64,000 bases of DNA, taken from the NCBI GenBank assembly GCA_038148515.1, contig JAYQVP010000002.1:166537-230536 (forward strand), given 5' to 3'. This stretch comes from Poseidonia sp. (GTDB lineage: Archaea > Thermoplasmatota > Poseidoniia > Poseidoniales > Poseidoniaceae). The stretch's first letter is position 1. Each line of letters begins with the position of its first letter. This document shows, in pieces, positions 7,736 through 62,975 of the stretch. Under the pieces are notes generated by a model. That model saw only the letters and a list, made by a program, of their open reading frames with translations. It ran no database searches and was not told the origin of the DNA. A program made the translations under genes and the position numbers.

Positions 7736-7823
7736 GGTCTCTTCTTGAGGGGCATTCTTAATGGGTTTATGGGCAGAGCATAACGAGGAACTTTTGTATA
7801 GGTCTTAAGACGAGAATTTTATC

Positions 7824-8378: not shown

Positions 8379-8380
8379 GT

Positions 8381-10342: not shown

Positions 10343-10469
10343 TGAACCAGCCCGTTGATTCCCACGCGGACGGGGGCTTTCAATTCATTGATGCGAGGTT
10401 CCGTAGCACAAAGCGAATGAGCAAATCACGACCACATGTATGAATAACGGGTAAAGACTTATTTTCGCC

Positions 10470-14555: not shown

Positions 14556-15151
14556 TTCCGAACAAGACGAAGAACCAAAGCCATATGGACCAACGCAACG
14601 CCATGGACGCCAAATCACTTCGAATGGTCTGGATCGATTTGGAAATGACGGGGTTGGACATCGAACACGATTCCATCATCGAAATCGCCACCGTCGTCAC
14701 CGACGGTGAATTGAACATCCTTGCCGAGGGCCCTAACCTCGCCGTGAGAGTCCCTCAGGAGATGATCGACGGTATGGACGAGTGGAATACACGTCATCAT
14801 CACGGCAGTGGACTGGTCGACCGCATCAAGGCTGAGGGCGTGAGTCCGGAAGAGGCTGAGCGAGCCACCTTGGACTTCCTCATGGCCTGGGTGCATCGCG
14901 ACCAAGCCCCCTTGTGCGGCAACAGTGTGTGGAACGACCGACAATTCCTCGCCAAGGAAATGCCGAACATCCTCGACTACCTGAACTATCGAATGGTAGA
15001 TGTTTCAAGCATTAAGGAAGTGGCTCGACGCTGGTATCCCGATGTTGCACGTTATCCAAAACGGGCGGCGCATGTGGCGCTTGACGATATTTTGGAATCC
15101 ATTGAGGAGCTCAAATATTACCGAGAACAGGTGTTCAAGGCTCAAGAATGA
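14552..15151 (+). CDS. orn: oligoribonuclease (DEDDh 3'-5' exonuclease, Orn-like)
   Basis: 'WIDLEMTGLD', 'HHHGSGLVDR' and 'CGNSVWNDRQFL' match Orn/DnaQ-like exonuclease motifs. A 4-nt overlap joins it to the preceding membrane protein; the true start may be the internal 'MDAKSL'. Confidence 0.8.
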   Translation: MIPNKTKNQSHMDQRNAMDAKSLRMVWIDLEMTGLDIEHDSIIEIATVVTDGELNILAEGPNLAVRVPQEMIDGMDEWNTRHHHGSGLVDRIKAEGVSPEEAERATLDFLMAWVHRDQAPLCGNSVWNDRQFLAKEMPNILDYLNYRMVDVSSIKEVARRWYPDVARYPKRAAHVALDDILESIEELKYYREQVFKAQE

Positions 15152-18688: not shown

Positions 18689-18744
18689 GCAACGGCCATG
18701 CGTCGCTCCCTTAAGAGCGATTACATGAAGCGATGATGAGATGT

Positions 18745-19896
18745 TTACAAGATATACCCTTGCCGTTGTGCGAGCAAGAGTGCGATGAAGACAAGGTAAA
18801 TCAAAATCAAAACAACCCCTTCGCCGCGTTTGAATTCATACTGCGACCGCATCATTGCCAACGCCACAGCCGTTCCGACAAAGGTGGCGGGTATGATGAG
18901 ATAGACCGTCAGGTCGTAACTGGCTGCGGTCAGCGCCAGCGGATAGACCATAGCAGCCAGGCCGATCGAGAGAAGCGGATCGGTGATGTTTGAACCAATG
19001 AGGGTCCCGATGGCTACACCCTCGCTGCGCTTGGCCGCCATGAACGCAATGGTAAGTTCGGGCAAGGAGGTGCCTAAGCCTGAAACGGTGGTCCCGACGA
19101 CGGCGTGGGGCACGTTGAGGGAATACGCGAGGTCGCTTGCGATGTTGACCAGGTGGTGGGCGGCAAACAGAGCCAGCAACAAACCAAGCGTCACCATGAT
19201 GGCGTACGATGCCGTCGTTCGACTCAACCGCCGTTCAACCGCCTCGGAATCACCCAATTCATCCTCAAGAATTTCATCTCGATGCGCCAGCAACCAATAG
19301 ATGTAACCGCCGTAGAGGGCCACCAACACCGCGCCCTCGAGACGGGAAAGCACCCCTCCCGTCCACAGAAAGAAGGTGAGCAAGGCGATGGACAGGAACA
19401 TGATGCTTCCGTCTCTCTTGAGCCACGAAGGGCGTATTTTCACCCCACGGAAGGTAACGACGACACCGAGGATGAGGGTGATTTGAACCAAAATGGAGCC
19501 GTAAATGCCGCCGATAGCGAGGTCGCCCACGTTGGGGTTGGATGGTATATCAGCCGCGGCTGTGGATGTCACCAAGATTTCGGGGAGCGAGGTCCCGATG
19601 GAAACGATGGTTAATCCGATGACCACTTCTGGCAGACCCGCGCGATAAGCGAGCCCTTTGGCTCCCTCGATGAACACGTCCGCCGATTTGATCAACAACA
19701 CCATCGCCATCACCAGCAACGCTAATGGGAGCCATTGACCGTTGAGCTGGTCGTTTCCATCGATGGTGGAATGCAACACAACAATCCCAAGGAACAACAC
19801 GCCGTTGATGAGCAAGGTGTTGCTCAGGACCAGTTGAGGGATGCCCATCACCGGCGAGGAACCCTCATCCACCATGGCTTGGCGAGCCCCCGCCAC
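18745..19896 (-). CDS. Na+/Ca2+ exchanger family (CaCA) membrane protein
   Basis: Two alpha-repeat regions ('GTSLPEILVT', 'GTSLPELTIA') inside a multi-TM protein. Confidence 0.8.
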   Translation of the reverse strand: MAGARQAMVDEGSSPVMGIPQLVLSNTLLINGVLFLGIVVLHSTIDGNDQLNGQWLPLALLVMAMVLLIKSADVFIEGAKGLAYRAGLPEVVIGLTIVSIGTSLPEILVTSTAAADIPSNPNVGDLAIGGIYGSILVQITLILGVVVTFRGVKIRPSWLKRDGSIMFLSIALLTFFLWTGGVLSRLEGAVLVALYGGYIYWLLAHRDEILEDELGDSEAVERRLSRTTASYAIMVTLGLLLALFAAHHLVNIASDLAYSLNVPHAVVGTTVSGLGTSLPELTIAFMAAKRSEGVAIGTLIGSNITDPLLSIGLAAMVYPLALTAASYDLTVYLIIPATFVGTAVALAMMRSQYEFKRGEGVVLILIYLVFIALLLAQRQGYIL

Positions 19897-19976
19897 TTCT
19901 TGACCGTTGCCTCACGCGTCAAAGACGAGTATCATGTTACAGAATGATTTCAAGAGAGGTCCGATGAGGCGAATCC

Positions 19977-39305: not shown

Positions 39306-39324
39306 TGTCATACCAAGCAGAAGG

Positions 39325-39397
39325 TAGTCCCTCCCGGATTCGAACCGAGGTCGGAGGAACCAGAATCCTCCATGATGGACCGCTACACTAAGGGACT
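39325..39397 (-). tRNA. tRNA-Gln (anticodon CUG)
   Basis: Minus-strand cloverleaf. Acceptor AGTCCCT/AGGGACT, anticodon stem GAGGA/TCCTC with loop TTCTGGT, T-arm CTCGG-TTCGAAT-CCGGG, discriminator A. The 3' CC is partly encoded but no full CCA, which is an archaeal-type Gln tRNA. Confidence 0.85.
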
Positions 39398-39643: not shown

Positions 39644-39750
39644 GGAGTGAACTTTGAACCGATTTATTTCAATCGTTCGTTGTACATCCGCCCTGTGATG
39701 GCATCCGAGTGAACACAAGCCTTTGAAACCACATTGGAGGTCCTCCCGAC

Positions 39751-46767: not shown

Positions 46768-46847
46768 GCCCGAGCCACACTCACCTCGGTTTTGAACATG
46801 CGCCCGTGTCAGTGTGAGGGGTGAGAAGGCTTGATGAGGCCCACCCA

Positions 46848-47770: not shown

Positions 47771-47846
47771 GGGTCAGTAGCTTAGTTGGGAGAGCGCGGC
47801 ACTGAAGATGCCGAGGTCGCTGGTTCAAGTCCGGCCTGACCCACCA
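47771..47846 (+). tRNA. tRNA-Phe (anticodon GAA), 3' CCA encoded
   Basis: Acceptor GGGTCAG/CTGACCC, D-arm GCTT-AGTTGGGA-GAGC, anticodon stem CGGCA/TGCCG with loop CTGAAGA, T-arm GCTGG-TTCAAGT-CCGGC, discriminator A plus CCA. 73 nt without the CCA. Confidence 0.85.
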
Positions 47847-47918
47847 ACCGTCACCAAGGATGGTTTTGGATGGCCGTCGATTATTTCTATAGAACATGAA
47901 ACAGGTTTCAAAACCCCC

Positions 47919-50087
47919 ATGGAAGCGAGGAAAAGGTTTCTTGAGGTGTTCGGGGCATGGCGAAGCATGGCCAAGGAGGACAAGGTTGATTCCGAGGCCA
48001 AAGAAGCCAACGAAGAGCATCATCGCTCCTCGGATCGTATCGGAAAGGAACTGCAAGAGATTCGCCAACGCCGAATGGGTGGCGGGCGCATGTTTCTTTC
48101 CAAAATCGAAGATTTCGTCTTACTGGGCGGCATCGTGTACGGCATCCTGTTCGCCTTGCTTCTCTTCTCCATGTCATCGGGGATGTTAGGCAATTCCACC
48201 ACCCTCGACCACACGGCATCGACCACGTTCCTTGACATCGGCGACGAGTGCGAACAAATCACCGAAGAGCCATGGCTCCATATCTTCCCCAATCCCGACG
48301 AGGAGTTGTTCTCCATCGCAGGTCACAACCTCCCAAACGGCGTGGCTTTCTTGAATTACAGTTACTTCTTGGTCCTCAACGACGAGACCATTGCGGTGGT
48401 TGATGAGCCGTACGGAAGCAACGAAACCACTCGAATCATCGACCAAGTGACCGAGGGGACCGGTCGAGCCTATTTCCGCGCCCCCTATTCCGAACTTCCC
48501 GAGGGGACCTACAAACTCCAATTCACCGTCGATGTGTATGTGGAACGCAACCGTTCATCCAACCAAACACTCGGCGGGCTTGAGCAACATCTGACCTTTG
48601 AGCACACGATTTCCAAAGAAACGCTTGCCTTCCTGCCCTTTGTCGACGATAGCGAACACTCGGAGGTTCGCATCGAAGACGCCGGACCCCGTTCGTGTTG
48701 GTCCGTTCAGGATTTGGGTGATTGGGGCTACCTTCTGATGGGGGCCGAATTGGGTGGTGGGCGTGAAACAGCAATGCTCACCGGAGGCGCCGCCGGCATT
48801 CCCGCCTGGTGGATGGCGTTCATCTCCCTCTCGTTGTCCATCATCTCACTGCTCATCATCTATCCAGTGATGTACAAGGTGTACCACCAAGATACTGACG
48901 ACATCCTCTCACGCAACCACATCACTCGCGTCGTTGAAGACACGGTTCTCTCCATTAGCAACCAATTGGGCATTGAGGTTGACACGGACTTGTTCAAAAC
49001 CGAGGTGAGAGAACTCTCCATTGACATCATGGTAGCGTACAAAAACACAGAAAACACCCTGTCCGATTCCAAGGAAGTGCGTTCAGAACTCCTGCGGAGC
49101 CTGCTGGAGGAGTTTGCTCTCTTTCGTGTGTTCAAACCCGTCCAGCTGAACGTGCGAATAATCGGAAGCGGGCAGAGCATCGATTTTGATTCTGGAGTTG
49201 GTATCGGGACCCGTGCCGAATCTGAAGACGAAGCCAATCAACGCCAAGACTACTCCAGTTTCTTCTCTGAACTCCACTCTCTTTCCCGAATCGAGGACGA
49301 CGTTCGGGACAGTCTGGACTTGTTCTTCTCTCGCCGCCTCGACCTTGAGATGAAGGGAGCCGTTGTTACCAGCGACGACCGTGTAGTGTTTGTTTCAGTG
49401 ATTTACCGTCCAACCCAACGACTGGCGTTTTTCCGATTCCGAAAAACTTCGACCCAAATTAAGGACGAACTCTTCCGATACATTCACGAGCGAAACGAAG
49501 ATTTGCTCGGCTCGCAGGAACTCATCGTCAAAACCCGAAACGAAGTGTCCACCCTCGCCGACCGAGCAGGAGCGGGACGGGTGGAGCGCCAATCCATGAC
49601 CGACGACGAGCGTATCGTGGCCATCGCCAAACAGGACGGTTTGGGGGGTCGAATGCTGCAGACAAAATTCCTCGGCGACACCCTCTCGACCGTGGAATAC
49701 ATGGCCAATGAAAAGCGTGACATGATCAACAAGTGGGGCTTCTGGGGACTCATCTTTTTCGTATGGATTCCGTTCATGGCTTCCGGTGTATTGGTTGGAG
49801 CTATGTTGGGTCTGCTCTCTCGCATGCAATTCATGCGCGTCCTTTTGGCGACCCTCATCGGGGGGTCAATAGCCTCAATCACCTGGGCGTACACCGCTGA
49901 AGGGATTGTGAAGTTCATGCACCAATACAAACTCGAAGTCTTCATTCCCATGATCATCGTTGTCTTCATCTTGATGGCGGTGCTTCACATTCGTTCGACC
50001 AAAATGCGTCGCCAAACGGAACTGTTTGAAGACACACTGCTCGACAATTTCCATGCCGATATCGTTGCAAAATACGGCGACCAGTAG
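47919..50087 (+). CDS. hypothetical multi-pass membrane protein with large extracytoplasmic and cytoplasmic domains
   Basis: 722 aa from ATG 47919; the ORF-track start at 47808 lies inside the tRNA. TM helices fall near residues 60-85 and about 350, plus three C-terminal helices. No motif recognised. Confidence 0.6.
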   Translation: MEARKRFLEVFGAWRSMAKEDKVDSEAKEANEEHHRSSDRIGKELQEIRQRRMGGGRMFLSKIEDFVLLGGIVYGILFALLLFSMSSGMLGNSTTLDHTASTTFLDIGDECEQITEEPWLHIFPNPDEELFSIAGHNLPNGVAFLNYSYFLVLNDETIAVVDEPYGSNETTRIIDQVTEGTGRAYFRAPYSELPEGTYKLQFTVDVYVERNRSSNQTLGGLEQHLTFEHTISKETLAFLPFVDDSEHSEVRIEDAGPRSCWSVQDLGDWGYLLMGAELGGGRETAMLTGGAAGIPAWWMAFISLSLSIISLLIIYPVMYKVYHQDTDDILSRNHITRVVEDTVLSISNQLGIEVDTDLFKTEVRELSIDIMVAYKNTENTLSDSKEVRSELLRSLLEEFALFRVFKPVQLNVRIIGSGQSIDFDSGVGIGTRAESEDEANQRQDYSSFFSELHSLSRIEDDVRDSLDLFFSRRLDLEMKGAVVTSDDRVVFVSVIYRPTQRLAFFRFRKTSTQIKDELFRYIHERNEDLLGSQELIVKTRNEVSTLADRAGAGRVERQSMTDDERIVAIAKQDGLGGRMLQTKFLGDTLSTVEYMANEKRDMINKWGFWGLIFFVWIPFMASGVLVGAMLGLLSRMQFMRVLLATLIGGSIASITWAYTAEGIVKFMHQYKLEVFIPMIIVVFILMAVLHIRSTKMRRQTELFEDTLLDNFHADIVAKYGDQ

Positions 50088-50734: not shown

Positions 50735-52144
50735 ATGCTGGGACACGTCTTGATTCACGGGGCGACCATGGTCACGCCCGATGCCACTGGTGTGGGCGAC
50801 CTTCGCATTCGCGCCGGAATCATCGACACCATCAGCCTCGGCAAGGCGCTCACGCCGTTGGATGACGAGCTCTACATCGATGGCCGTGGCCTTCATTTAT
50901 TGCCGGGAATGATCGACCCCCAATGCCATTTCCGGGACCCCGGACAACCGGAAAAAGAGGACCTTGGTTCAGGATCGGCTGCAGCGGTGAGCGGGGGTGT
51001 GACATCCTTTCTCGATATGCCGAACAACAAGCCCTCGATCACAACGATGGATGGGATGCGCAGCAAATTGGACACGGCGAAAGCCAAGTGTGTCAACAAC
51101 TACGGGTTCTTCATTGGAGCGACCCCTGACAATGTCGCCGACCTGCAAGAGGCCGTTGGTACTCGCGACCGACCCATCGCCATCCCAGGCGTTTGCGGCA
51201 TCAAAGTGTTCATGGGTTCGTCAACAGGAACTCTGCTGGTCAACGAACGTACCGCCCTTGAAGCAATTTTTGAGGGGACGGCCGGGCTGATCGCCGTTCA
51301 TGCCGAAGACGAGGGACGATTGATTGAGCGCTTTGAGTTGGTCAAAGAACGGTCCGACATGGCCGCCCACGCCGAATGGCGAGACGATGTCACGGCCTTG
51401 TTGGCAACACAATTGGCGGTCGAGTTGGCGCAGGCCTCCGGTCACCGTTTACACGTCCTTCACCTCACCAGTGGCATTGAGGCGGACTGGTTGGAGGGGA
51501 TCACATCGCTGCCTTCTCAGGCCTCGGACGGAGACGCCATCATCACGACCGAAACGCTCCCACAGCACCTCACGTTTGATGAAACAGACGTGTTGAACGA
51601 GGGGACGCGCCTGAAGATGAACCCCCCCATTCGTTACGCAGAGGACCGAACGAGGTTGTGGGACCAACTCCGCAAGGGCACGATTCAGTGCATCGCTACC
51701 GACCACGCCCCCCACACACTGGAAGCGAAGGCGTTGGGCTTTCCAGAAGCCCCCAGCGGCATGCCGGGCGTTGAAACTTCGTTGGCAGTGATGCTCACCC
51801 ATGCAAGCGAGGGAGCGTGCAGCATCGAGGACGTCGTTAAATGGATGTCAACCAACGTCGCAGACTGTTACAACATGATGGGCAAGGGGCGCCTTGAAGA
51901 GGGAGCGGACGGCGATGTTGTCCTCGTCGACATGAACACTCCTCGCACGGTGGATGACCAGCACACCTGGACTCGAGTCGGTTGGAGTCCGTTCCACGGG
52001 CGAAAGTTGGTCGGCTGGGCATCGGTCACGGTTGTTGGTGGCGTACCGGTCTTCGAACGCACCGAAGCAACCGGCCCAAAGGGCAGACTGTTGGTTGAAC
52101 CGGGGCAAGTCGGGTCGCCGATTGTCATGGGTCCTTGGGACTAA
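50735..52144 (+). CDS. pyrC: dihydroorotase-like cyclic amidohydrolase with non-canonical first metal ligand
   Basis: 'IDPQCHFRDPGQPEKEDLGSGSAAAVSGGVTSFLDMPNNKP' reads like the type I DHOase 'DxHxHLRxPG' region but with Gln in place of the first His. The downstream 'KVFMGSS', 'VHAED', 'HVLHLTS' and 'ATDHAPH' ligands are conserved. Confidence 0.75.
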   Translation: MLGHVLIHGATMVTPDATGVGDLRIRAGIIDTISLGKALTPLDDELYIDGRGLHLLPGMIDPQCHFRDPGQPEKEDLGSGSAAAVSGGVTSFLDMPNNKPSITTMDGMRSKLDTAKAKCVNNYGFFIGATPDNVADLQEAVGTRDRPIAIPGVCGIKVFMGSSTGTLLVNERTALEAIFEGTAGLIAVHAEDEGRLIERFELVKERSDMAAHAEWRDDVTALLATQLAVELAQASGHRLHVLHLTSGIEADWLEGITSLPSQASDGDAIITTETLPQHLTFDETDVLNEGTRLKMNPPIRYAEDRTRLWDQLRKGTIQCIATDHAPHTLEAKALGFPEAPSGMPGVETSLAVMLTHASEGACSIEDVVKWMSTNVADCYNMMGKGRLEEGADGDVVLVDMNTPRTVDDQHTWTRVGWSPFHGRKLVGWASVTVVGGVPVFERTEATGPKGRLLVEPGQVGSPIVMGPWD

Positions 52145-53637
52145 GCAAGCCCGTACAACGCTCCGTATTTTTCTTCGACGTAACGTAGGAAGGCGTCAGG
52201 GCTTGGTGGAGCGCCCGTCGCTGCTTCGATCAGGGCAGCGGGCGTCACTTGGCTGCCGCGTTCATGAATGCGAGGGCGCAACCAGGCCAGCAACGGAGAC
52301 CAATCCCCCGACGCAACCAGGGTGTCAATGTCGCCCAAATCGTTGCTCATCGCCTCCAACAACTGAGCAGCGTAGAGGTTGCCCAATGTGTAGGTGGGAA
52401 AGTATCCAAACGCTCCCATGGACCAGTGAATGTCCTGCAAGCACCCCAGTCGGTCTTCGGGAACTTCAAGTCCAAACCAATCCCTAAACATGGTGTTCCA
52501 AGTTGAAGGGAGGTCGTCTACTGATAGGTCGCCGTTGAACAACTGCTTTTCTATTTCATAACGCAGCATCACATGTAGGTTGTAGGTTACTTCATCTGCT
52601 TCGACACGAATAAAGCCTTTTTCGACCCGATTTGCGATCCGATTCAGTTCATGCTCGTCCCACGAGGGGGCATCGGGGAAGGCTTCTCTAAACCACGGTA
52701 GAGCGACCTTCCAAAAGGCCGATGTTCGCCCAATCTGGTTTTCCCAGAAGCGACTTTGCGACTCGTGAACCCCCAACGAGACTGCATCGCCCCGAGGCGT
52801 GTAACGGTGGTTGGCATCCAAACCTTGCTCGTACAAGGCATGGCCAGTCTCGTGCATCACGGCGTACAAACAGGAGAACGGGTCGGTTTCATCAAACCGC
52901 GTGGTGAACCGAGTGTCGCCCGGCCATAAACCAGCGGAAAACGGGTGCGTCGATGCATCCATTCGTCCTGATTCAAAATCAAATCCCATCGCACTGGACA
53001 CCTTCGAGCAGAAGGCTTCCTGCTTCTCAATCGGAAAGCGAAGAGAATCCGGGAAATGCACGCTGGTCATGGTGTTTTGTGCCTCAGTTATCGCCTTCAG
53101 GAGAGGCACAAGGCGCCCTCTTAATCCATCAAACAGCGGGTCGTAATCGGCAACGGTCATCCCCACCTCATATTCGTCGAGAAGAACGTCGTAAGGCGTT
53201 GTAGTGACACCGAGTAGGTCTATTTTTTCCCGTGTAAGAGCAATCAACTGCTCTAATGCCGGCTTGAACAACGCAAAATCAGACTGCTGTCGGGCTTTTT
53301 GCCAGGCGACGAGCGCTGTTGAACGGGCTTGTGCAAAGGATTCCACAAATTCCTTTGGAAGTCGAACGGCCTGGTCGTGCGCGCGCCGCATCTCTCGCAC
53401 ATTCGCTTCTTCGTCGGCTGACAAGGAGATGGTTTCCAACTGATTGAGCAACTCGCCCATTCGCTGGTCGGTGAGTTGTTGATGACGTTGTCCCGCCAGC
53501 CAAGCCATCATTTCTCCGCGTGCTTCGGCCCCCTTTGGTGGCATCAGCACCTCCTGGTCCCAACCCAAATGACCTTGAAGGGCACTCAAGCGATGGATGT
53601 CCTTGACACGTTGGATGAATTCGTCATACAGTTCCAT
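52141..53637 (-). CDS. carboxypeptidase Taq (M32) family metallopeptidase
   Basis: 'HETGHALY' (HEXXH) and 'HESQSRFWEN' are M32 signatures. Start at internal 'MELYDEF' (53637). Confidence 0.85.
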   Translation of the reverse strand: MELYDEFIQRVKDIHRLSALQGHLGWDQEVLMPPKGAEARGEMMAWLAGQRHQQLTDQRMGELLNQLETISLSADEEANVREMRRAHDQAVRLPKEFVESFAQARSTALVAWQKARQQSDFALFKPALEQLIALTREKIDLLGVTTTPYDVLLDEYEVGMTVADYDPLFDGLRGRLVPLLKAITEAQNTMTSVHFPDSLRFPIEKQEAFCSKVSSAMGFDFESGRMDASTHPFSAGLWPGDTRFTTRFDETDPFSCLYAVMHETGHALYEQGLDANHRYTPRGDAVSLGVHESQSRFWENQIGRTSAFWKVALPWFREAFPDAPSWDEHELNRIANRVEKGFIRVEADEVTYNLHVMLRYEIEKQLFNGDLSVDDLPSTWNTMFRDWFGLEVPEDRLGCLQDIHWSMGAFGYFPTYTLGNLYAAQLLEAMSNDLGDIDTLVASGDWSPLLAWLRPRIHERGSQVTPAALIEAATGAPPSPDAFLRYVEEKYGALYGLA

Positions 53638-53754
53638 GACGCGTTCAACCCTCGGTGCTTCTTCAAGACTGCCCTTCAAACACAAGGATGGAAGCAAGCC
53701 TTCCTTGACCCCGTGAATGCACACATTCAAGAAGCCGTAAAGTTAGCCGATGAC

Positions 53755-54894
53755 ATGGACCTCCCCGCTCACCCAGAAGGGGACACGGGTGAGAAGATCA
53801 CGGACATCGATGCCGACATGGAAGATATCCTCAATGCTTCAGAAAAACGCTCAGGGGAGGTCGTCCTCCCTTTGCAAAGCGCTTCACACGACGAGAGCGA
53901 GGATTTGGACCATGGCGCTCGGATGACCAGAAGCGCCCTCACGGTGGTCGACACCTGTATGGATGTCCGCCGAGGTGAAAACGTCCTCATCATTTGCGAT
54001 CCCACAACCACAGAGATCGGTCAAGCCCTCCATGAAGCCGCGAGCAAGCGTTCCGATCGTGTCCTACTCATCGTCATGCCAAAAGGCCGACACCACGGTG
54101 AGGAACCGCCAACACCGGTAGCCAACCTCATGCGTCAGCAACGTGTGGTTGTTGCTCCCACCAAGTATTCCCTGACCCACACCAAGGCCGTTCGGCAAGC
54201 GGTGAACGATGGGGCTCGGGTGGCGACGATGCCAGGCATGACCACCCGGATGTTCACCGAGGGCGGGATGTCGGCCAACTTCAACATCATCAAGAAGAAC
54301 ATCGGTGAAATGAGTGGGTTGTTGCGACGAAAGCGAATCGTGAACGTCAAATCCGAATCCGGAACCAATGTCACCTTTGAGGTGAATTGGCGGGAGTGGA
54401 AGTACGACGACAACGGCATCTGCAACCGCCCAAAAATGGTGATGAACCTGCCCGCTGGCAAAATCTTCACTCTCCCACGAGAGGGAACGATGAACGGAAC
54501 CATCGTGATCGATGGTTCATGGGATTCGGCCTTGGTGGATGAGCCCGTCATCCTTCAAATTGAAAACGGCATGGTGGTGGACGTCAAAGGCGGTGTTGCC
54601 GCTGCCCAAATCCGTCAAACCTACGGCGAGGCTGCACGGCGGTTGAAGGCGAAGGACCAGGAAAATGTCTGGACCGTAGCTGAATTCGGTTTTGGTATGA
54701 ATCCATCCGCCCGCCTGATTGGAAACGTGTTGGAGGATGAAAAACGCCTTGGTACAGCCTACTTTTCCATCGGCGACAACACCATGCTGGGCGGGCATGC
54801 AGCCGTTGGCATTCAGGTCTCAGGAGTCTTGGCCTCGCCCAGCGTGTGGATTGACGAATTCCTGCTGATCGAGGACGGGTTGTTCGTACCTTGA
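53755..54894 (+). CDS. aminopeptidase (M29 / AmpS-PepS-like) - tentative
   Basis: Length and overall pattern ('ENVLIICD', 'EFGFGMN', 'DGTIVIDGSWD') resemble the thermophilic-metalloprotease M29 family. Start at ATG 53755 to avoid overlap with the divergent M32 gene. Confidence 0.55.
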   Translation: MDLPAHPEGDTGEKITDIDADMEDILNASEKRSGEVVLPLQSASHDESEDLDHGARMTRSALTVVDTCMDVRRGENVLIICDPTTTEIGQALHEAASKRSDRVLLIVMPKGRHHGEEPPTPVANLMRQQRVVVAPTKYSLTHTKAVRQAVNDGARVATMPGMTTRMFTEGGMSANFNIIKKNIGEMSGLLRRKRIVNVKSESGTNVTFEVNWREWKYDDNGICNRPKMVMNLPAGKIFTLPREGTMNGTIVIDGSWDSALVDEPVILQIENGMVVDVKGGVAAAQIRQTYGEAARRLKAKDQENVWTVAEFGFGMNPSARLIGNVLEDEKRLGTAYFSIGDNTMLGGHAAVGIQVSGVLASPSVWIDEFLLIEDGLFVP

Positions 54895-54896
54895 TT

Positions 54897-56390
54897 TCAA
54901 TAGCCAAGGTTTTGTTGACCGCAGACCGGACAGAAGCGCCAATACGCATCCAGACCGATGCCGCAACCTCGACAGTGCACGCCTGAGCGGATCGTGGGCT
55001 GAACCAGAGGTTGCTGAGGCTGTGGCCAGCCTTGTTGCTGCGGAGGAGGTTGTTGCCAGCCTTGTTGCTGCGGGGGTGGCTGTTGCCAGCCTTGTTGCTG
55101 CGGAGGTGGCTGTTGCCAGCCCTGCTGAACAGGCTGTTGGGGCATCGGGTCTCGAGCTTGTTGTTGGGGGGGTGAAGGTGCCGTGTTGCCTTGACCAAGC
55201 GGTTTACGGACGGGAGCAACGGGTTTTGGCAGCGATGCCGTTCGCTCTGCTGCGGGTGAAGCAATGAACTCTGAGAGCGACACGACCCCATCGCCATCGG
55301 TATCGGCTTCGGCGTGAAGAGCAGCCGCCTCTTCGAGCGTTGTGCCGGTGGCCTGTGCCAATTCCTCAATGTCCAAGGCTCCGCTTCCGTCGCCATCAGC
55401 GGCGATGAAATGCTCGGCGGCACTGACAAATTCTGAGGGTTCGTCATCTGTTGCCACCTCAACAGGAGACTCAACGGCTTCTGAAACTGATTCGGCTTGG
55501 AGAGGGGTGTCGTGGACATCAAGTTCGGTGCTGAACGCCCCTGCAAAGGCGTCTTGGGCGGCTCGGACAACCTGACGCTCGTTCTCGGTGTTGACCGGTG
55601 TGGTTTCACTGACGACCGGTTTTTCGACGGCTGGAAGCGCCACGCTTGCCGTTGGCAAGGGCACAGCGGGCGAGGGTGCATCGCTTGGCGTTGGCTCTGA
55701 TGGGGCTTGTTCAGACGAAGTCGGCGGAGGGGATGTCTGTTCCGCTGGTTCGGGTGACGGTGCCTTTTCAGGGGCCTGAGGCAAGGTCGTTTGCTCGGGC
55801 AAATCCACATCGGCAGCGGATGCGGATGAGCTGGCAAGGGTAGAGATCGGCAGAACATGGCCGGCCACGTCCAACGCAGCGTTCAGTTCGTGGTGGACCG
55901 CCACCAAGGTGTCAAGGTGGGAAGCCACATCTGAGAGGAGGGAAGCCAAGGCTTTGTCGTAAGTGCTCACCTCGCTTTCACCTCCTGTTTGGAAGGCCAC
56001 GGCGAAGAGTTTCATCATGCGCATGGGGTCAGCAAGTTGCTCCAAAGCCTGTCGCTGTGCGTCATCAAGAGTGGCTGCGGCTCCTGTTTCACCCATAGAA
56101 TCGGTTTGGCCAAGTGCGTGGAGCAGCGGATCGGGCAAACTCATCAGTCCAAGGTGACCAGCGACCAAGTAGTAAATCTCGCCGCCTTCGCACTGCATAC
56201 GTTCACTGGCGGCTTCGAAATCAAAATCACCCGGCCGAAGGACGATGTCGGACAGCAATTCGAAAAATTTCTCCAACGCTTGGCTCCGAGGCATGGCCAT
56301 CATGGCGTGCAGGACATCGGATGATTCGGTGACACCGAAGTAAGCAGCAGCCTCATCGACTTCAATGTCGGGGCCGCCTTGTTCTGCCAT
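54897..56390 (-). CDS. EF-hand / Q-P-repeat / C-terminal zinc-ribbon protein (hypothetical)
   Basis: Two EF-hand-like loops 'DGDGSGALDIEEL' and 'DTDGDGVVSLSEF', a tandem 'QQGWQQPPPQ' x4 block, and a C-terminal 'CRGCG...CPVCG'. It sits 50 nt downstream of, and co-directional with, the giant adhesin. Confidence 0.55.
   Translation of the reverse strand: MAEQGGPDIEVDEAAAYFGVTESSDVLHAMMAMPRSQALEKFFELLSDIVLRPGDFDFEAASERMQCEGGEIYYLVAGHLGLMSLPDPLLHALGQTDSMGETGAAATLDDAQRQALEQLADPMRMMKLFAVAFQTGGESEVSTYDKALASLLSDVASHLDTLVAVHHELNAALDVAGHVLPISTLASSSASAADVDLPEQTTLPQAPEKAPSPEPAEQTSPPPTSSEQAPSEPTPSDAPSPAVPLPTASVALPAVEKPVVSETTPVNTENERQVVRAAQDAFAGAFSTELDVHDTPLQAESVSEAVESPVEVATDDEPSEFVSAAEHFIAADGDGSGALDIEELAQATGTTLEEAAALHAEADTDGDGVVSLSEFIASPAAERTASLPKPVAPVRKPLGQGNTAPSPPQQQARDPMPQQPVQQGWQQPPPQQQGWQQPPPQQQGWQQPPPQQQGWPQPQQPLVQPTIRSGVHCRGCGIGLDAYWRFCPVCGQQNLGY
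55021..55130. repeat. about 3.5 tandem copies of a 30-bp unit (tgttgccagccttgttgctgcggaggtggc)
   Basis: Direct tandem repeats inside the EF-hand protein gene that encode the Q/P/W-rich repeat block. Confidence 0.7.
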
Positions 56391-56440
56391 GTCTTGTCAC
56401 CTAACAATTCGCCGAGTTCGGACCCCCATTTAAGTCCTCA

Positions 56441-59400
56441 TCAACCGCCTTCGGCGGCTTTGTTTTTCGCTAGGTTCCAAATCGCCCTTGATTGTTCAGC
56501 CGTCCACCCGGTTTCCTGAAGTTGCATCAACACGCCTCGCTCCTGCTCGCCGTCACTCATCGCACCAACCACCCAGTCGACAGCGGAAGTTCGGTCGTTG
56601 ACCTGCCAGTCTTCAAAGATGCTCAAATCGACCACAATCTTGGCTTTGCGTACCTTTGCAGCAGGCTCTTCCTCGACCGTGACGGATTTTTTCTTCGCCA
56701 CTTTCGCAGCGGGTTTGGCAGAACCCGGTGGACCCCCTGATGAACGTCCGGGTGGGCCGCCAGATGAGCGACCTGGGGGACCACTTGGTGCGCTCCGCTG
56801 AGACGGGCCGCCTGCTGGGCCACCGCGCTTGGCTGGGCCTCCTTGAGGCCCGCCTATGGGACCACCTTGAGGGCCGCCGCGCGGCCCACGCCCGGGTCCA
56901 GAAGAGGCCGGTGAACGTCCTGATGATGCACGACCTGCATTGGCTCGAGACGCCAGCGGCGTAGAAGCGCGTCGGTCGATGCGGTCAAAGACACTCTCTT
57001 CCTCGTCATCATCATCGAAGCCATCATCGTATTCATCCTCGTCATCGTCGTCACGCTCTCTGCGAAGCAGCACCGAAACGAGAATGAGCAGGAGAAGGAG
57101 GGCACCGCCACCACCGGCTACGAGCATGAGGGTTCCTGCATCGATGCCAAAGAGTCCCTCGGTCCCATCGCCAGACTGAGCAATGTACGGACAGCCGTCG
57201 TCGTACCCGTCAACGCCTTTGGCCACCTCAGGACAGTTGTCATCCGCATCCACCACGCCGTCGTTATCAGAATCACGTTCGGTGGGGTGACAGCCATCCT
57301 CATCGACCATGTTCACCACAGCAAATGGCGTGCGAGGGCACAGGTCGACGTTGGTCGCTCCTTCGACGAACACCCCTGGCCAAGATGGGTCACGGGTTGC
57401 CGTGAGGGAAGCATCCCCGTAATTGTCACCAAATCCGTCTCGGTCTGTGTCGCTCCATTGCGTGGGGTCACCTCGGAGGTTCACCGGTTCGTTGTCATCA
57501 CGCCACCCGTCACCGTCGTCGTAACATCCAAGGTAGTCGATGTAGGACGTTCCGGCCTCTTCGGGGCATTCGTCGGCGTTGGTGCCGTTGGGGTTATCGC
57601 CGTACCCGTCGTTGTCCTGATCGAACCACTGGGTGGGCTCGGTGGGGAAGGCATCTCCGGTTTGATTGACATGCAATCCCGTATCCGGGTCGATGTCGTA
57701 CGTGTACACGCCTGCATACCCGTCACCGTCAAGGTCAAGGTCGAGGGCACTTTCATCCGTGCAACCGTTTTCAAGGATGGGGAAGCCAGGCGGGGTGTCG
57801 TCGCATGCATCGTCCAAATCAACGATGCCGTCACCGTCCGTGTCTCGCTGTGCTTGCGAGCAACCTCGCTCGTCCACTTCATCGCCTGTCGCCGTGTTTG
57901 GACACGCATCCTCGGGGTCGTTGAGGCCATCGCCGTCGGAGTCGGTCGTTCGTTGCTCGGTGCTACAGCCCTCGGCGTCAACAGCGATGCTGGCTGCGGT
58001 GTTGGGGCACAGGTCAAGCAGGTTGCTGACGCCGTCATCATCGTCGTCCAATTGCGATTCGCCACACCCAGCAGCGTTGACGGTTTCTCCCGCTGGGGTG
58101 TTGGAGCATGCATCAACATCGTTGATAACGCCGTCGTTGTCCTCATCGTTCACGTCCACAACTCGGCACCCAATGGCAGTCAACGAGGGGTTGGAGGGGT
58201 GGGTGCCCTCTGCGACGCCGGCCTCAAACGGACAGACATCGCCCTCGAAGCCCGCTGGATTGTCACCAAAGCCGTCACCGTCGGTGTCAAGCCATTGATC
58301 CTTGATCGACGGGAAGGCGTCACCCGCTTGTTGCTCTCGCAATCCCGAAGTTGTGTTGAGCACGAATGAATACTGGTCGGTGTACATGTCCCCGTCCGAG
58401 TCCAGGCAGCCCTTCACCGGTAAGGTGGAATTGCCCCATTCTAAGGGACAGGCATCGAGTTGAATGCCTTCGCCGTTGCTGCCGTCGTACATCGCTGTCC
58501 AATTGTCAGCAAAGCCGTCACCGTCGGTGTCGTTGGCCGCCGCCTGTCGGTACGGGAACCGGTCTGGGGTGGTGGCGTTGGCTGATTGGTTGTCACCAAA
58601 GCCGTCACCGTCGGTATCGGCCCATTGCGTGGGGTCGAGTGGCCAACGGTCGGCCCCATGCTGATCAGCGTTCCATTCGAAAATCGTCCCTTCATCGGAG
58701 GGATCGCTCGAGCCGTCCCCATCGGTGTCAAGGCAACCGTTTCGGTCCCGGAAAGAGGTGCCAGCGTCCCAAGGGCAATAATCACCGTAAACGAGGTCGG
58801 TGTCGTTGTCGCCGTAGCCATCCCCGTCATAATCAGCATATTGCGATTCCAAGTAGGGGAACAAATCCCCCGGCCCAGCGTTTGGGTCGTATATCGGCAC
58901 CGAACAACAATCGGTTCCATGGTTGTCGCCAAATCCGTCGCCGTCGGTGTCAAGCGCCTGTTTCCAGTTGCTGTAAAATCGGTCCCCGTTCACGTAACTG
59001 CCGACGTTGTCGGACCAGCCGTCCTGGTCGTAGTCTTGACAGCCAAAGCGGTCGATCCACGAGGTCCCCGAATACTGGCCCCCGTTGCAGGCATCTAATG
59101 AATCGCTGAATCCATCCGAATCCACATCCTCGCACCCTTGGCTGATAAAGGAAGAGGAGCCGCTGACTGTAGGGCAATCATCGGGCAATGGACCCAGAGG
59201 ATTGTCCCCGTAGTTGTCGCCGTCCGAGTCGAGCCATTGGTCGCCAACCTCGGGTAGGGCATCGATGAGGTCGAAGACCAAATCGCGGTCGCTGTCCTCA
59301 TACAAGCGAAGCGCGCGGACGTCGTTTGGCGCCGTGTCCCAATAGGCTGCTTTGACCGTGCCGTCGGCATCCAGCGTTGCGCTCACAGGAGCCTCGATGA

Positions 59401-62400
59401 CAACATCGCCGAAGCGAACGCTCATCCATGGGGCTTGGTCCCCGAGAACGCCGTCAAGTTCCAAGGTATTGACCACCAAATGCTGGGTCGTAGGGTCGCT
59501 GGTGAGCAGAAGGAGATGCTCGCCCACCGTCACGATGTCCCATGCACCGTTGGCGGCCGCATCGGGCCGTTGGGCAATGGGGTTCCAAGCATAGGTCTGG
59601 TTCAACATGAAAATCGAGGAGGCGGCATTGCCACGAACGGCAAGAACGGGGTTGTCGCCTCCTTCAAGGTCCAATCTGAATTCGTTGGCGCTTCCACTGG
59701 GTTGGGTCACGGTATGGGCTTGCCAATCGGTGCTTCCGGGCCACAACTCCTGGACTTGCAGATACCCGTTCGTGGTCAGACTGGCGACCAGAAGGGAGCC
59801 GTTGCTGCGCAACGCCAGCGATAGTTCGGCGCCCGTGTCGGAGAAATTACCCAAACTGTGTTTGTACAAGGTTGACCCGTCGTGCATCCACAACGATAGG
59901 TTCGTCCCTGTACCGTTTGATGTCACAAGCGCCACTGCGAGGGTGCCGTTAGGCATGAAAACAGCTGGATGCTGCAACGACAGGGCTTCACCAGCATCGC
60001 CCAATGTCTCAAGCGACCAACTGCTGCCACCAACCGCCATCTCGAGTTGATCGGTGTCGGCATGTCGGTACACGAAATGCGGCACATTAGCGCTATCGAC
60101 AACCACGCTGATGGGTGAAGCCAGGGTTACGCTGCTGCGGACCAACTCATTGCTCCAGCCACTTGAGGTTTCCAATCCCGCATACATCTTGAGTCCTGCA
60201 CCAGATGTGTAAGCAAGCACTTGTTCGCCGTCCTGATTGAGTGAAGAGCCCAAGTATTGCCCCACAGTCCCGGTCGTCGCCACATCCTGAACCACGGCGG
60301 TCATGGAGGTGGTTGAGAACCAATCAATGCTGTTTCCATCTTCAGTGATGAGGACGGGTTGGCCCGTTGAACGGACTTCGAACGCAAACGAGAGATTGCT
60401 GGCATCGGTGTTCAGAATCGTTTGCCTCACCCATTGCCCTGTGGGGGTTCCGTCGTTCATGTGTTCAAGTTTTGACACATAGGTCACACCTGCATCGGTG
60501 TGGCTGAACACGATGCTCGTCTCGCCCCGTGCTGCCGTGGCCAATTCGAGGCCGTTGACGTCGCCGTCCATGGTGAACGAAAGCGATTCCCAATCACGCT
60601 CGGTGAGGATAATGTAATCCAACCCGAAGGTTGTTCCTCGGTTTGTGTTTCGGAGGGAGTAAACCACCTCGCTCAATCCGTCACCATCCACATCGCCAGT
60701 ACCAGCAAGATGGGCACCCAGCCGTTGGCCACTCGATCCGGAGGCCAAGAGTTGACCTTCTGAACGCAGACCGGAAGCGGAACCAAGGAAGAGTTGCACC
60801 ATGCCCGAAGACGAACCCATGTTGCTCGAGATGTACACATCGTCGTACCCGTCCTCGTTGACATCGCCAGCGGGAACGATGTCTTCGCCAATGCGGGCGT
60901 TGGGTGTTGAAGGCGACAGGAACCAATCGGGCGTACCCGACATAGAGCCAATCGCGCCCTCAAACAACCACAACGCGCCAGAGCCAAACGCCCCCGATGA
61001 GTTGTAAGGCTCGGTGATGATGTGGTCGTCAATGCCGTCCCCGTTCACATCACCGACACAAGCGATGAGATAACCCAACAATTTTCCTTGTGTCAGCGAT
61101 TGTACGGTGCGATCGGGTGTTCCATCATAGCCTGTCAATGAACCATAGAAGTACTCGATGGATGAGTAAGAGTTGATGTCGTCGTACGAGCCCGTGTTGC
61201 CTACGATGAGGTCGTCATAACCATCGCCGTCGACGTCGCATGCTTCCATCGAGCGGCCGAACAAATTGCCGTCCATGGATTGTGTAAGGTTGCGGGCGGG
61301 CACCAGACCGGATGTGACAGACATGTAGATGTTGACTTTTCCAGCATGAGTTTCGCTGCCCACCGTCTGAGTGTACGATTGAGCGACCGCAGCCACCATG
61401 TCAGGTGCGTTGGTCTGTGCCAAGACGGTGACCAAGCCCCCCAATCCTTCGCTTCCGGACCCTTCAACGGTGGTCCATGGCGTTGACGAGAGTCCGGAGG
61501 CGTTTCCAAGATAGACAACCACTTGGCCCGAAGGTGTCGACGAACTGTTCGCCGGATGCCAGCCAGGCGAGCCCACGACCAAATCCACTATGCCGTCGTT
61601 GTTGACATCGCCGACATCGAAGCTGGAACCAAACAGGGCGTCATCGTTGGCTCCTGTGAGAATCACGTCGGGGATGCTGGAAACGCCCTGAGGCGTTCCG
61701 TAGAACACATCAACGCGCCCGTTGGAGGTCATGCCCACCAAACTTGCTTCAGGCGTTGCAACAAGCAGATCGTCAAGCCCGTCGTCGTTCAGGTCGGCCA
61801 ACAGCAGCGAACCTTCTGAGACATCTTCTTCGCCCTCGACCACCCCCACGGGGGTGGGGTCCACCCGGCCCGTGTCTTGACCTGCAAGCGAACGAATCAG
61901 CTCGATGGAAAAGGACGTCGCTTCTTGAGTTGACGTCGCAACCTGTTCAACGAGGCTTCCGTCCAAGTCCATGCCTACGGCATCAACGAGGTCGGTATCG
62001 GCTTTCAGAACTCGCTCGTCACGGTCGAACCCGTCCACACGCAACAGGACCACTTCGTTGGTATCGGTTCGCAAATAGAGAATATGAGCAACGCCGTTCT
62101 CGTCCATCTGAAGTTCAATATCTTCGCCGACTGGCCCCGCATCCAGGACATAGGTGGTCCAGTAGGCTCCGCTAAAGTTCACTTGATGCAAAACCCCGTC
62201 TTGGGTTCGCATCAATCCCCACTCGACGCCACCGGGGGTGATTTCAAGTTCAAGCGAGGTGGGGTACACGTTTTCGAGAATGGTGCGAGTGTGCCATTTC
62301 GGCCCGTCCCAATAGGTCTGACTCATCATCGCGTAACGACCCATCTTCAGGTTTGGGCCGTCGGCATAGAGCACCCTCGGCAATTCGTGTGCAGGCGTTA

Positions 62401-62866
62401 CGGCAATGGCACAATCGACCAGCGTGCTGGTGTTGGCAGGCGTCACGTTGTCAACGAGAGAACTTTGCCACAGACCGTTGGAGCGATGCAAGGCTGTTCG
62501 GACAGGGCCTTCTTCGGTTGACCAGCAATAGTGCTCGTTGTTGTGTCGAGTCAGAGTCATGTCCGGCGTACCGTGGTGCTCGACCGAGGAGTTGTTCAAT
62601 TCCTCGCTCCACCAATAGTCGAGCAACGATTCGGGGCGAACGGTGGCCATGTCCAACCCGTCTACGCTGATGGCGGACCCAGCGATGTCGTGCCCGTACC
62701 CTGATGTGAGGTTGAATGATCCCGTTCGCATGGATGGCGACGCAGCATCTTCGAGGAGAGTCTCGAATGAAGGCGATGTGAATGCCATCGACCACGATGA
62801 AAGCACGAGACAGAGAACCAACGCAAGGCTTTGACGAAGAATTTTCTGCTGGCCGCCATCCGACAT
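56441..62866 (-). CDS. giant integrin-alpha-like surface adhesin (FG-GAP repeats + TSP3 repeats + TM + G/P-rich cytoplasmic tail)
   Basis: About 2141 aa from ATG 62866, with signal peptide 'LALVLCLVLSSWSMA'. FG-GAP/Ca-loop repeats 'DVDGDGYDDLIVG', 'DVNGDGIDDHII', 'DVNEDGYDDVYIS' and 'DVDGDGLSEVVYS'. Many TSP3-like 'DTDGDG' repeats, a TM helix 'LMLVAGGGGALLLLLILVSVLL', then an acidic stretch and 'GGPQGGP/GGPPGRSS' repeats. Confidence 0.8.
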   Translation of the reverse strand: MSDGGQQKILRQSLALVLCLVLSSWSMAFTSPSFETLLEDAASPSMRTGSFNLTSGYGHDIAGSAISVDGLDMATVRPESLLDYWWSEELNNSSVEHHGTPDMTLTRHNNEHYCWSTEEGPVRTALHRSNGLWQSSLVDNVTPANTSTLVDCAIAVTPAHELPRVLYADGPNLKMGRYAMMSQTYWDGPKWHTRTILENVYPTSLELEITPGGVEWGLMRTQDGVLHQVNFSGAYWTTYVLDAGPVGEDIELQMDENGVAHILYLRTDTNEVVLLRVDGFDRDERVLKADTDLVDAVGMDLDGSLVEQVATSTQEATSFSIELIRSLAGQDTGRVDPTPVGVVEGEEDVSEGSLLLADLNDDGLDDLLVATPEASLVGMTSNGRVDVFYGTPQGVSSIPDVILTGANDDALFGSSFDVGDVNNDGIVDLVVGSPGWHPANSSSTPSGQVVVYLGNASGLSSTPWTTVEGSGSEGLGGLVTVLAQTNAPDMVAAVAQSYTQTVGSETHAGKVNIYMSVTSGLVPARNLTQSMDGNLFGRSMEACDVDGDGYDDLIVGNTGSYDDINSYSSIEYFYGSLTGYDGTPDRTVQSLTQGKLLGYLIACVGDVNGDGIDDHIITEPYNSSGAFGSGALWLFEGAIGSMSGTPDWFLSPSTPNARIGEDIVPAGDVNEDGYDDVYISSNMGSSSGMVQLFLGSASGLRSEGQLLASGSSGQRLGAHLAGTGDVDGDGLSEVVYSLRNTNRGTTFGLDYIILTERDWESLSFTMDGDVNGLELATAARGETSIVFSHTDAGVTYVSKLEHMNDGTPTGQWVRQTILNTDASNLSFAFEVRSTGQPVLITEDGNSIDWFSTTSMTAVVQDVATTGTVGQYLGSSLNQDGEQVLAYTSGAGLKMYAGLETSSGWSNELVRSSVTLASPISVVVDSANVPHFVYRHADTDQLEMAVGGSSWSLETLGDAGEALSLQHPAVFMPNGTLAVALVTSNGTGTNLSLWMHDGSTLYKHSLGNFSDTGAELSLALRSNGSLLVASLTTNGYLQVQELWPGSTDWQAHTVTQPSGSANEFRLDLEGGDNPVLAVRGNAASSIFMLNQTYAWNPIAQRPDAAANGAWDIVTVGEHLLLLTSDPTTQHLVVNTLELDGVLGDQAPWMSVRFGDVVIEAPVSATLDADGTVKAAYWDTAPNDVRALRLYEDSDRDLVFDLIDALPEVGDQWLDSDGDNYGDNPLGPLPDDCPTVSGSSSFISQGCEDVDSDGFSDSLDACNGGQYSGTSWIDRFGCQDYDQDGWSDNVGSYVNGDRFYSNWKQALDTDGDGFGDNHGTDCCSVPIYDPNAGPGDLFPYLESQYADYDGDGYGDNDTDLVYGDYCPWDAGTSFRDRNGCLDTDGDGSSDPSDEGTIFEWNADQHGADRWPLDPTQWADTDGDGFGDNQSANATTPDRFPYRQAAANDTDGDGFADNWTAMYDGSNGEGIQLDACPLEWGNSTLPVKGCLDSDGDMYTDQYSFVLNTTSGLREQQAGDAFPSIKDQWLDTDGDGFGDNPAGFEGDVCPFEAGVAEGTHPSNPSLTAIGCRVVDVNDEDNDGVINDVDACSNTPAGETVNAAGCGESQLDDDDDGVSNLLDLCPNTAASIAVDAEGCSTEQRTTDSDGDGLNDPEDACPNTATGDEVDERGCSQAQRDTDGDGIVDLDDACDDTPPGFPILENGCTDESALDLDLDGDGYAGVYTYDIDPDTGLHVNQTGDAFPTEPTQWFDQDNDGYGDNPNGTNADECPEEAGTSYIDYLGCYDDGDGWRDDNEPVNLRGDPTQWSDTDRDGFGDNYGDASLTATRDPSWPGVFVEGATNVDLCPRTPFAVVNMVDEDGCHPTERDSDNDGVVDADDNCPEVAKGVDGYDDGCPYIAQSGDGTEGLFGIDAGTLMLVAGGGGALLLLLILVSVLLRRERDDDDEDEYDDGFDDDDEEESVFDRIDRRASTPLASRANAGRASSGRSPASSGPGRGPRGGPQGGPIGGPQGGPAKRGGPAGGPSQRSAPSGPPGRSSGGPPGRSSGGPPGSAKPAAKVAKKKSVTVEEEPAAKVRKAKIVVDLSIFEDWQVNDRTSAVDWVVGAMSDGEQERGVLMQLQETGWTAEQSRAIWNLAKNKAAEGG

Positions 62867-62975
62867 GGTTCTCTCACATCCACCGACCTTGAAAATCATT
62901 GTTGATTGCGGCCTTGCTCTTCAATTGCGGCCAACCATCCCAGCAACCCACATCGCTGGGTTGAGATAGGCCAAC

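Follow-up and report, generated by a model that had tools for sequence, protein, structure and literature searches.

Gene pair at the locus

The DNA analyzed in this study is a 64,000-nucleotide stretch (hereafter, the window) of contig JAYQVP010000002.1 (assembly GCA_038148515.1, positions 166,537–230,536 of the forward strand). Its source is a Poseidoniaceae archaeon of Marine Group II (MGII), belonging to MGIIa, and its G+C content is approximately 56–59%. We focused on two genes that are arranged head to tail on the minus strand, namely a gene for a giant surface protein and, directly downstream, a gene for a small cytoplasmic protein. In the open reading frame (ORF) list they correspond to 56441..62899 and 54897..56390 with 50 nt between them, and a preliminary description of this DNA had placed both genes and the gap correctly. 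All coordinates refer to the window, and all features of the two genes are on the minus strand. Homologues of the small protein with a source name were designated as Candidatus Poseidoniales, Poseidoniaceae or Poseidonia. The gene pair is limited to MGII (order Poseidoniales), is kept across the order and appears to be hitherto undescribed. The tail domain of the giant protein, the family of its neighbor and the order-wide pairing were not found in the literature searched, which agrees with the earlier remark that such a pairing had not been seen described.

Giant surface protein

The gene of the giant protein (56441..62866) encodes 2141 amino acids (aa). The frame is open up to an ATG at 62899, but comparison with orthologues favored the in-frame ATG at 62866 as the likely start. 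In one orthologue (L010) a stop codon follows the upstream ATG, and in another (L019) the corresponding Met is absent. Because these orthologues break the upstream extension, a start codon at 62899 was rejected, and the start and length given in the preliminary description (62866, 2141 aa) were borne out. The apparent N-terminal peptide "MIFKVGG" of the extension corresponds to a promoter-like DNA box, ATGATTTTCAAGG (62887..62899), approximately 21–33 nt upstream of the ATG at 62866. This box is conserved at the DNA level, even where the frame is broken.

The protein is laid out as a type I membrane protein with a signal-peptide-like segment, a large ectodomain, one transmembrane (TM) helix and a cytoplasmic tail. 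The N-terminal hydrophobic segment (62771..62866; aa 1–32) forms a hydropathy peak and consists of a basic n-region followed by LALVLCLVLSSWSMA. It is separated by about 300 aa without a family match from an FG-GAP beta-propeller (60587..61843; aa ~342–760), to which the Pfam families FG-GAP and FG-GAP_3 were assigned and which contains seven DxDxDG Ca2+ motifs. The FG-GAP family matched in five stretches with an E value of 1.3e-18. The top PDB sequence matches of this region (aa ~353–758) were the propellers of integrin alpha-IIb, alpha-5 and alpha-V with an E value of 7e-12, and both searches confirmed the propeller of integrin-alpha type that had been noticed from the sequence. The next ~470 aa had no family match, and the middle region of the protein gave no significant Pfam match even at E ≤ 10.

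The C-terminal part of the ectodomain is a TSP3-type stalk (57182..59176; aa 1231–1895), in which a motif scan detected 12 Cys loops of the form C-x(10–24)-GC and 17 DxDxDG motifs. The repeat unit is of the bacterial OmpA type. The Pfam TSP_3 score was 19.9 bits, under the cut-off of 25, and partial matches were obtained to TSP3-containing NCBIfam models and to an OmpA-family chain in the PDB (5wtl). The repeats proposed in the preliminary description are therefore present, but their number falls short of the "dozens" mentioned there. In the search of the whole giant protein against Pfam, FG-GAP, FG-GAP_3 and TSP_3 were the only families that turned up.

The single TM helix is located at 57056..57130 (aa 1913–1937; hydropathy 2.56). 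All 26 N-x-S/T sequons lie N-terminal to this helix, in the ectodomain, where 15 were expected from the composition. The hydropathy profile and the placement of the sequons thus support the topology originally suggested (a large ectodomain, one TM helix and a cytoplasmic tail). The net charge of the ectodomain is −252. The ectodomain is probably an exposed, Ca2+-loaded and glycosylated surface protein, which fits the sequons and the charge.

Two side observations concern the giant protein. In a 2.09-Mb polished long-read contig (L001, 4045–9939), its gene was called in three pieces of 447, 973 and 557 aa. The split probably reflects residual frameshift errors in a repeat-rich gene and not real pseudogenization. 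A second TSP3-type protein of 393 aa is encoded in the window at 6554–7735 on the minus strand; it was retrieved by tblastn with the TSP3 zone of the giant protein (E = 7e-16), and its Pfam TSP_3 score of 23 bits is just under the cut-off. Repeats of this type therefore occur in several surface proteins encoded by this genome.

Cytoplasmic tail

The tail of the giant protein, which starts with RRERDDDDEDEY, consists of an acidic block, a Gly/Pro/Ser/Arg tract and a terminal domain of about 70 aa. Its composition agrees with the preliminary description (an acidic block and GGPQ/GPPGRSSGG repeats), whereas its length is 204 aa and not about 250 aa. The membrane-proximal acidic block, RDDDDEDEYDDGFDDDDEEE (56981..57055), is kept in orthologues of both MGIIa and MGIIb. 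The following tract (56696..56953) is disordered and is encoded in part by 24-nt tandem repeats (GGPQ, GPPGRSSG). The C-terminal cytoplasmic domain (CTD; 56444..56659) was predicted by AlphaFold (AF2) as a three-helix bundle with pLDDT values above 90.

The sequence comparison indicates that conservation within the giant protein is highest in the CTD. Across MGIIa species genomes, its identity was 39–87%, compared with 23–65% for the mid-ectodomain, and it usually outscored the ectodomain segments of the same locus. MGIIb orthologues keep the plan of the tail, with the acidic block, a G/P/R tract and a terminal helical domain carrying W.DLF...LQ..GW..KQSK.IL. No PDB match to the CTD was found by sequence or by fold. 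A homology search with the CTD yielded only 48 short fragments, all of the same gene family, and no other architecture, and no paralogue of the CTD or of the N-domain of the small protein was found within the window. As far as the literature searched shows, this domain appears to be hitherto undescribed. The oddest feature of the locus is that a giant surface protein bears a cytoplasmic domain which is both folded and conserved, and an intracellular ligand is therefore implied.

Small protein and its family

The small protein gene (54897..56390) encodes 497 aa. Hydropathy analysis detected neither a signal peptide nor a TM segment, confirming that the product is soluble as had been proposed, and the absence of these segments together with the presence of a zinc ribbon fits a cytoplasmic location. 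More than 500 homologues were retrieved, and every one with a source name is from MGII or Thermoplasmatota archaea.

The modules of the protein were defined from an alignment of 23 orthologues and an AlphaFold model. The all-alpha N-domain (55836..56369; aa ~8–185; pLDDT ~90) had no Pfam match and no PDB fold match, and it is represented by just 95 clusters among 1.84 billion representative proteins. Judged from these searches, it is an order-specific and undescribed domain. The linker after the N-domain is Pro-rich and leads to a short conserved amphipathic helix, QVxRAxQDAFxGAF (55536..55598), which was identified in the alignment and corresponds to helix 270–281 of the model with a hydrophobic moment of 0.48. 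An acidic linker connects this helix to an EF-hand pair (55236..55433; aa 320–385), which is composed of two helix-loop-helix units with canonical 12-residue loops. Both score above the Pfam cut-offs and are predicted to bind Ca2+, in support of the two EF-hand loops noted previously.

The pair is followed by a near-invariant linear motif, LPKPVAPVRKPL (55197..55235), whose prolines and arginine are invariant in the 23 orthologues; a similar motif of the form P(V/I)R(K/A)P(L/I) is also present in MGIIb members of the family. The remaining part contains a Gln/Trp/Pro repeat tract (55005..55169) with the tandem QQGWQQPPPQ block reported earlier, and a predicted C-terminal Cys4 zinc ribbon, CRGCG-x10-CPVCG (54900..55004). 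The cysteines of the latter, which had also been recognized in the preliminary description, are invariant in the 23 orthologues and kept in all distant members. The Pfam matches of the ribbon (DZR, 3.7e-4; Zn_Ribbon_1, 1.5e-3) are both under the cut-off, and the AlphaFold model has short strands at residues 471–493 with pLDDT of approximately 70. Pfam and domain scans of the small protein found no kinase, phosphatase, cyclase or DNA-binding output domain.

Distant members of the family (32–42% identity) keep the N-domain, the disordered middle and the ribbon, and the EF-hand is missing from them. A profile constructed from these members retrieved proteins of which some are named as Thalassarchaeaceae (MGIIb), and only some of the retrieved proteins have the EF-hand pair. 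The N-domain, the disordered region and the ribbon therefore make up the family core, and the EF-hand pair is a variable module. The source name of one orthologue (P0097) is "MinC". No Min-type domain was found, and this unverified automatic name was rejected as an annotation artefact.

Conservation of the pair across Poseidoniales

Species-representative genomes were scanned, and 80 loci were kept from 142 relatives. All kept loci are assigned to Poseidoniales or to a broader archaeal taxon, and they include the original MG-II assembly (CM001443.1). In MGIIa, every locus with sufficient flanking sequence (approximately 75 species-representative genomes) has the giant gene immediately upstream of the small gene and on its strand. 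In a reciprocal search starting from the tail domain of the giant protein, in which metagenome contigs were counted only if they had at least 400 nt downstream, the small gene directly followed in 79 of 79 contigs. The tandem is also present in four loci of MGIIb, the sister family (L083, L084, L086, and L087). Conservation of the two genes as neighbors in relatives had been set beforehand as the observation on which the pairing would stand or fall, and it was found in all three data sets. The same-strand gap between the two genes is 50–103 nt across MGIIa and MGIIb, and in MGIIb the pair is also retained in loci whose small protein lacks the EF-hand. Both protein families, the giant protein with its CTD and the small protein, are confined to the order Poseidoniales.

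The pair is flanked by a divergent thiamine pyrophosphokinase (TPK) gene and a convergent NicX/M29 gene in the same loci of both MGIIa and MGIIb. The order TPK (divergent), giant gene, small gene, NicX (convergent) is kept in the four MGIIb loci, and the collinear block of MGIIa additionally includes M32 and amidohydrolase genes. The outer flanks have changed in MGIIb, where the M32 gene after NicX is replaced. Its place is occupied in L083 (11224–18371) by a gene for an FG-GAP_3/UnbV_ASPIC protein and two genes of the animal haem peroxidase family, and in L084 and L086 (~12350–14870) by a gene for a Beta_propel protein.

Promoter-like boxes and the intergenic gap

The gap between the two genes (56391..56440) contains a CTTAAAT box at 56428–56434 and a Shine–Dalgarno sequence, GGTGA, at 56397–56401. 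The box occupies the same place, about 40 nt upstream of the ATG of the small gene, in approximately 65 orthologous gaps. Its sequence is CATGAGGGCTTAAATG in Poseidonia; other genera have CATCATCCTCAAGAAC, CCATAAGAAG or GGCATAAATG at this place. The box is followed by a GGAGG-type Shine–Dalgarno sequence. Boxes of this kind (TTGAAGAA, TCAAGAAG, CTTAAGG, CTTAAAT, TTCAAAAC, and TTTTCAAG) are located approximately 30–40 nt 5' of many start codons in the window, with examples near 53638–53670, 19876–19910, 18689–18720, 46768–46800, and 39715–39750. The box is probably a local TATA-like promoter element of this G+C-rich archaeon. Since the gap box matches the boxes of other genes in the window, a separate promoter for the small gene is probable.

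Repeat tracts and length variation

Tandem Repeats Finder (TRF) detected DNA repeats in both genes, as the preliminary description had indicated. The repeat in the small gene (55016–55121) has a period of 30 and 3.5 copies with 92% matches, and that in the tail region of the giant gene (56723–56889) has a period of 24. Depending on the species, the Gln/Trp tract measures 51–94 aa and contains one to five Trp units, and the tail of the giant protein measures 161–206 aa. A metagenome contig that is 98% identical at the DNA level over 5.5 kb had 110 substitutions and no gaps in either tract, and a 97% identical protein also had no change in repeat length. The proposal that the repeats make the pair prone to length polymorphism was therefore not supported by these close relatives, and the lengths vary only between species.

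Possible relationship between the two proteins

Starting from the observed domains, topology, tail-domain conservation and order-wide adjacency, we tentatively regard a functional link between the tail of the giant protein and the small scaffold as the single most likely reading of the sequence data. This choice is made because the two families share one order, the tandem survives changes of the flanks, the tail needs a ligand, and the scaffold has docking-type motifs. Conserved linear motifs in disordered regions are typical of docking partners. In the proposed arrangement, the acidic, probably glycosylated ectodomain would present the seven-blade Ca2+-binding propeller atop a long Cys-loop TSP3-type stalk, which would presumably be stiffened by the calcium of seawater. 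A single TM helix would hold the protein in the membrane, and the giant protein may act on particles or algal surfaces as an adhesin or cell-coat protein that depends on Ca2+. In contrast to most prokaryotic adhesins, it has a conserved cytoplasmic tail at its end, and the three-helix bundle of this tail would have to bind something intracellular. The small protein would be a cytoplasmic modular scaffold, built of the N-domain, disordered linkers with the PVRKPL motif and the Trp/Gln repeats, the ribbon and the EF-hand pair. As the intracellular partner or organizer of the tail, it may contact the tail directly and participate in signaling. The EF-hand pair would be an accessory and lineage-specific Ca2+ input, not the core of the mechanism.

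Several observations weigh against this functional link. The adjacency of the pair is no better conserved than that of the flanking TPK and NicX genes, whose functions are unrelated, and with the high background collinearity it may reflect simple inheritance. The small gene is, judging from the box in the gap, probably its own transcription unit. In one locus of a divergent lineage (L085), the sole exception to the pairing, the small gene is directly beside TPK and the giant gene is missing there. The small homologue of this locus has 525 aa and two ribbons, and the EF-hand is missing. On the far side of TPK, the locus encodes two membrane proteins, one of the Big_13/PKD type with 426 aa and one with TSP3 repeats and 900 aa; the tail of the latter is short and lacks the CTD. 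These features of L085 lie at 5300–9279 and 10001–11578. A crude and here uninformative mirror-tree analysis of rate covariation in 57 loci, from which the trend of control genes was removed, gave a rho of 0.19 between the N-domain of the small protein and the CTD, compared with a stronger value of 0.6–0.7 between the unrelated TPK and the ectodomain. In addition, many MGIIb orthologues lack the EF-hand pair although they are still located downstream of the giant gene, and the strict single-copy conservation of the latter would also fit a structural envelope protein.

These points make it nearly as likely that the two genes are neighbors by inheritance only, the giant protein being a surface adhesin and the small protein an unrelated product with its own promoter that are held together by frozen synteny in a streamlined, collinear genome. 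Such an explanation would account for the collinearity of the whole TPK/giant/small/NicX block in all loci, with M32 and amidohydrolase in MGIIa, for the conserved promoter-like box and Shine–Dalgarno sequence within the gap, for the small gene of L085 without the giant gene, and for the lack of specific rate covariation in the crude test. It is less readily reconciled with the survival of a same-strand tandem with a 50–103-nt gap in both MGIIa and MGIIb while the outer flanks become Beta_propel, peroxidase and FG-GAP_3/UnbV_ASPIC genes. The confinement of both proteins to one order and the conserved tail domain, which needs a cytoplasmic ligand, also argue against inheritance only.

If the functional link between tail and scaffold is extended further, MGII may own an integrin-like transmembrane coupling device, a prokaryotic receptor/adaptor pair for adhesion whose origin would be independent of the eukaryotic integrin adhesome. 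It would consist of the propeller/TSP3 ectodomain, the TM helix and a CTD docking to a dedicated scaffold, would be tuned by the EF-hand pair in MGIIa, and would allow attachment to particles to be sensed or organized from inside the cell. We consider this wider proposal rather unlikely in its entirety.

Another explanation, to which we give a still lower probability, is that the giant protein is a core envelope or cell-coat (S-layer-like) glycoprotein whose tail, possibly with the small scaffold, anchors or patterns the coat for assembly, shape or division. The giant gene is present once per examined locus at the same place order-wide, and its product has its domains in a constant order and is anchored by a TM helix near the C-terminus. 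The ectodomain is extremely acidic, sequon-rich and predicted to bind Ca2+, and the tail domain is strongly constrained. The automatic name "MinC" of one orthologue of the small protein, unverified as it is, would also point this way. However, no S-layer-type or lattice-forming domain was detected in the Pfam and NCBIfam scans, the FG-GAP and TSP3 modules are typical of adhesins, and at least one further TSP3 protein in the window indicates that the repeat type is more widely used.

Finally, the eukaryote-like outside-in receptor of the preliminary description, in which a ligand signal from the propeller would pass via the TM helix to the tail and recruit the EF-hand protein as a Ca2+ adaptor, is improbable even with its receptor-like plan of a propeller, one TM helix and a tail that is both structured and conserved, the adjoining cytosolic calmodulin-like EF-hand pair and the order-wide adjacency, and Ca2+ signaling of this type is the least supported version because the EF-hand pair is dispensable in part of the order (many MGIIb orthologues keep the gene pair without it) and none of the output domains named above was found in the small protein; the equal conservation of TPK and NicX, the separate box of the small gene, L085 without the giant gene, and the absence of integrin leg domains, GFFKR and, among the called genes of the loci, a beta subunit also speak against it.

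Other genes in the window

The longest ORFs of the NicX/M29-like gene (53476–54894, plus strand) and the divergent M32 carboxypeptidase gene (52141–53730, minus strand) overlap by approximately 250 nt. The real starts of both genes are probably internal, and that of M32 is probably the ATG at 53637, which is preceded by a TTGAAGAAG box. A tRNA-Phe (GAA) gene at 47771–47846 on the plus strand overlaps the first ATG (47808) of a 759-aa ORF (47808–50087) with an Sm_multidrug_ex domain, and the real start of this ORF is therefore further downstream. A tRNA-Gln (CTG) gene is located at 39323–39397 on the minus strand. The 1361-aa ORF at 10470–14555 on the plus strand encodes a large uncharacterized protein to which no Pfam family was assigned at E ≤ 0.001.

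Significance and comparison with known systems

MGII archaea are among the most abundant archaea of the surface ocean and have never been cultured. Their mode of attachment to particles and algae is an ecological question, for which the locus offers a concrete, order-wide candidate: a giant Ca2+-dependent surface protein whose best conserved part is intracellular, together with a dedicated neighbor that is unique to this order. Should the two proteins interact, they would represent a rare prokaryotic adhesin coupled to cytoplasmic machinery. If they do not, the giant protein and its tail domain would still offer a defined marker and target to work on the surface of MGII cells. The idea is testable with recombinant fragments, and no culture is needed.

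The giant protein resembles the integrin alpha subunit in having an FG-GAP propeller with DxDxDG Ca2+ loops and in being a type I protein whose cytoplasmic tail follows a single TM helix. It differs from integrin alpha in several other features. The thigh and calf Ig-like leg domains were not found by Pfam, and the membrane-proximal GFFKR motif is absent, the tail starting instead with RRERDDDD. The tail itself, with 204 aa and a folded domain, contrasts with the short tails of integrin alpha subunits, and the propeller is in the middle of a 1900-aa ectodomain and is followed by TSP3 repeats. No integrin beta-like gene was found among the called genes of the loci examined, the search being limited to these loci and not covering whole genomes. 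Membership of the giant protein in the integrins was thus rejected, as only the propeller is common to both.

The EF-hand pair of the small protein is calmodulin-like. In contrast to the pairs of calmodulin lobes, polcalcins, ALG-2 and the regulatory domains of CDPKs, it is a single pair placed between the N-domain and the ribbon of a 497-aa protein, and it is missing from many MGIIb orthologues. The predicted ribbon shares CxxC-x10-CxxC in the typical CG/CP context with zinc-ribbon proteins (Pfam DZR and Zn_Ribbon_1) and is invariant in the family; its HMM scores are under the cut-offs.

The stalk of the giant protein is similar to TSP3 surface proteins such as those of the OmpA family and the myxobacterial TraB and MtsC, with which it shares the unit DxDxDGxxDxxD followed by a C-x(10–24)-GC loop. 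The partial matches of the giant protein were to the NCBIfam models PA1041 anchor, TraB and MtsC and to PDB chain 5wtl. The difference is that the repeats of the giant protein are the stalk of a much larger protein with a propeller, a TM anchor and a cytoplasmic domain. "Thrombospondin genes" have been reported for Poseidoniales (Rinke et al., 2019; PMC6461757), and thrombospondin-type and Ca-dependent adhesion proteins of MGII have been treated as attachment factors (PMC6461757, PMC4511931). MGII surface proteins of this kind were loosely noted by Iverson (2012), in the form in which that work is cited in PMC4511931, by Rinke (2019; PMC6461757) and by Meheust (2022; PMC9258230). The MGII genome surveys refer to "adhesion domains", "thrombospondin genes" and lineage-specific Ca-binding families in general terms only (PMC4511931, PMC6461757, PMC9258230). 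In summary, the giant protein appears to belong with the known FG-GAP/TSP3 Ca2+-dependent surface proteins, and its tail domain and the partner family appear to be new.

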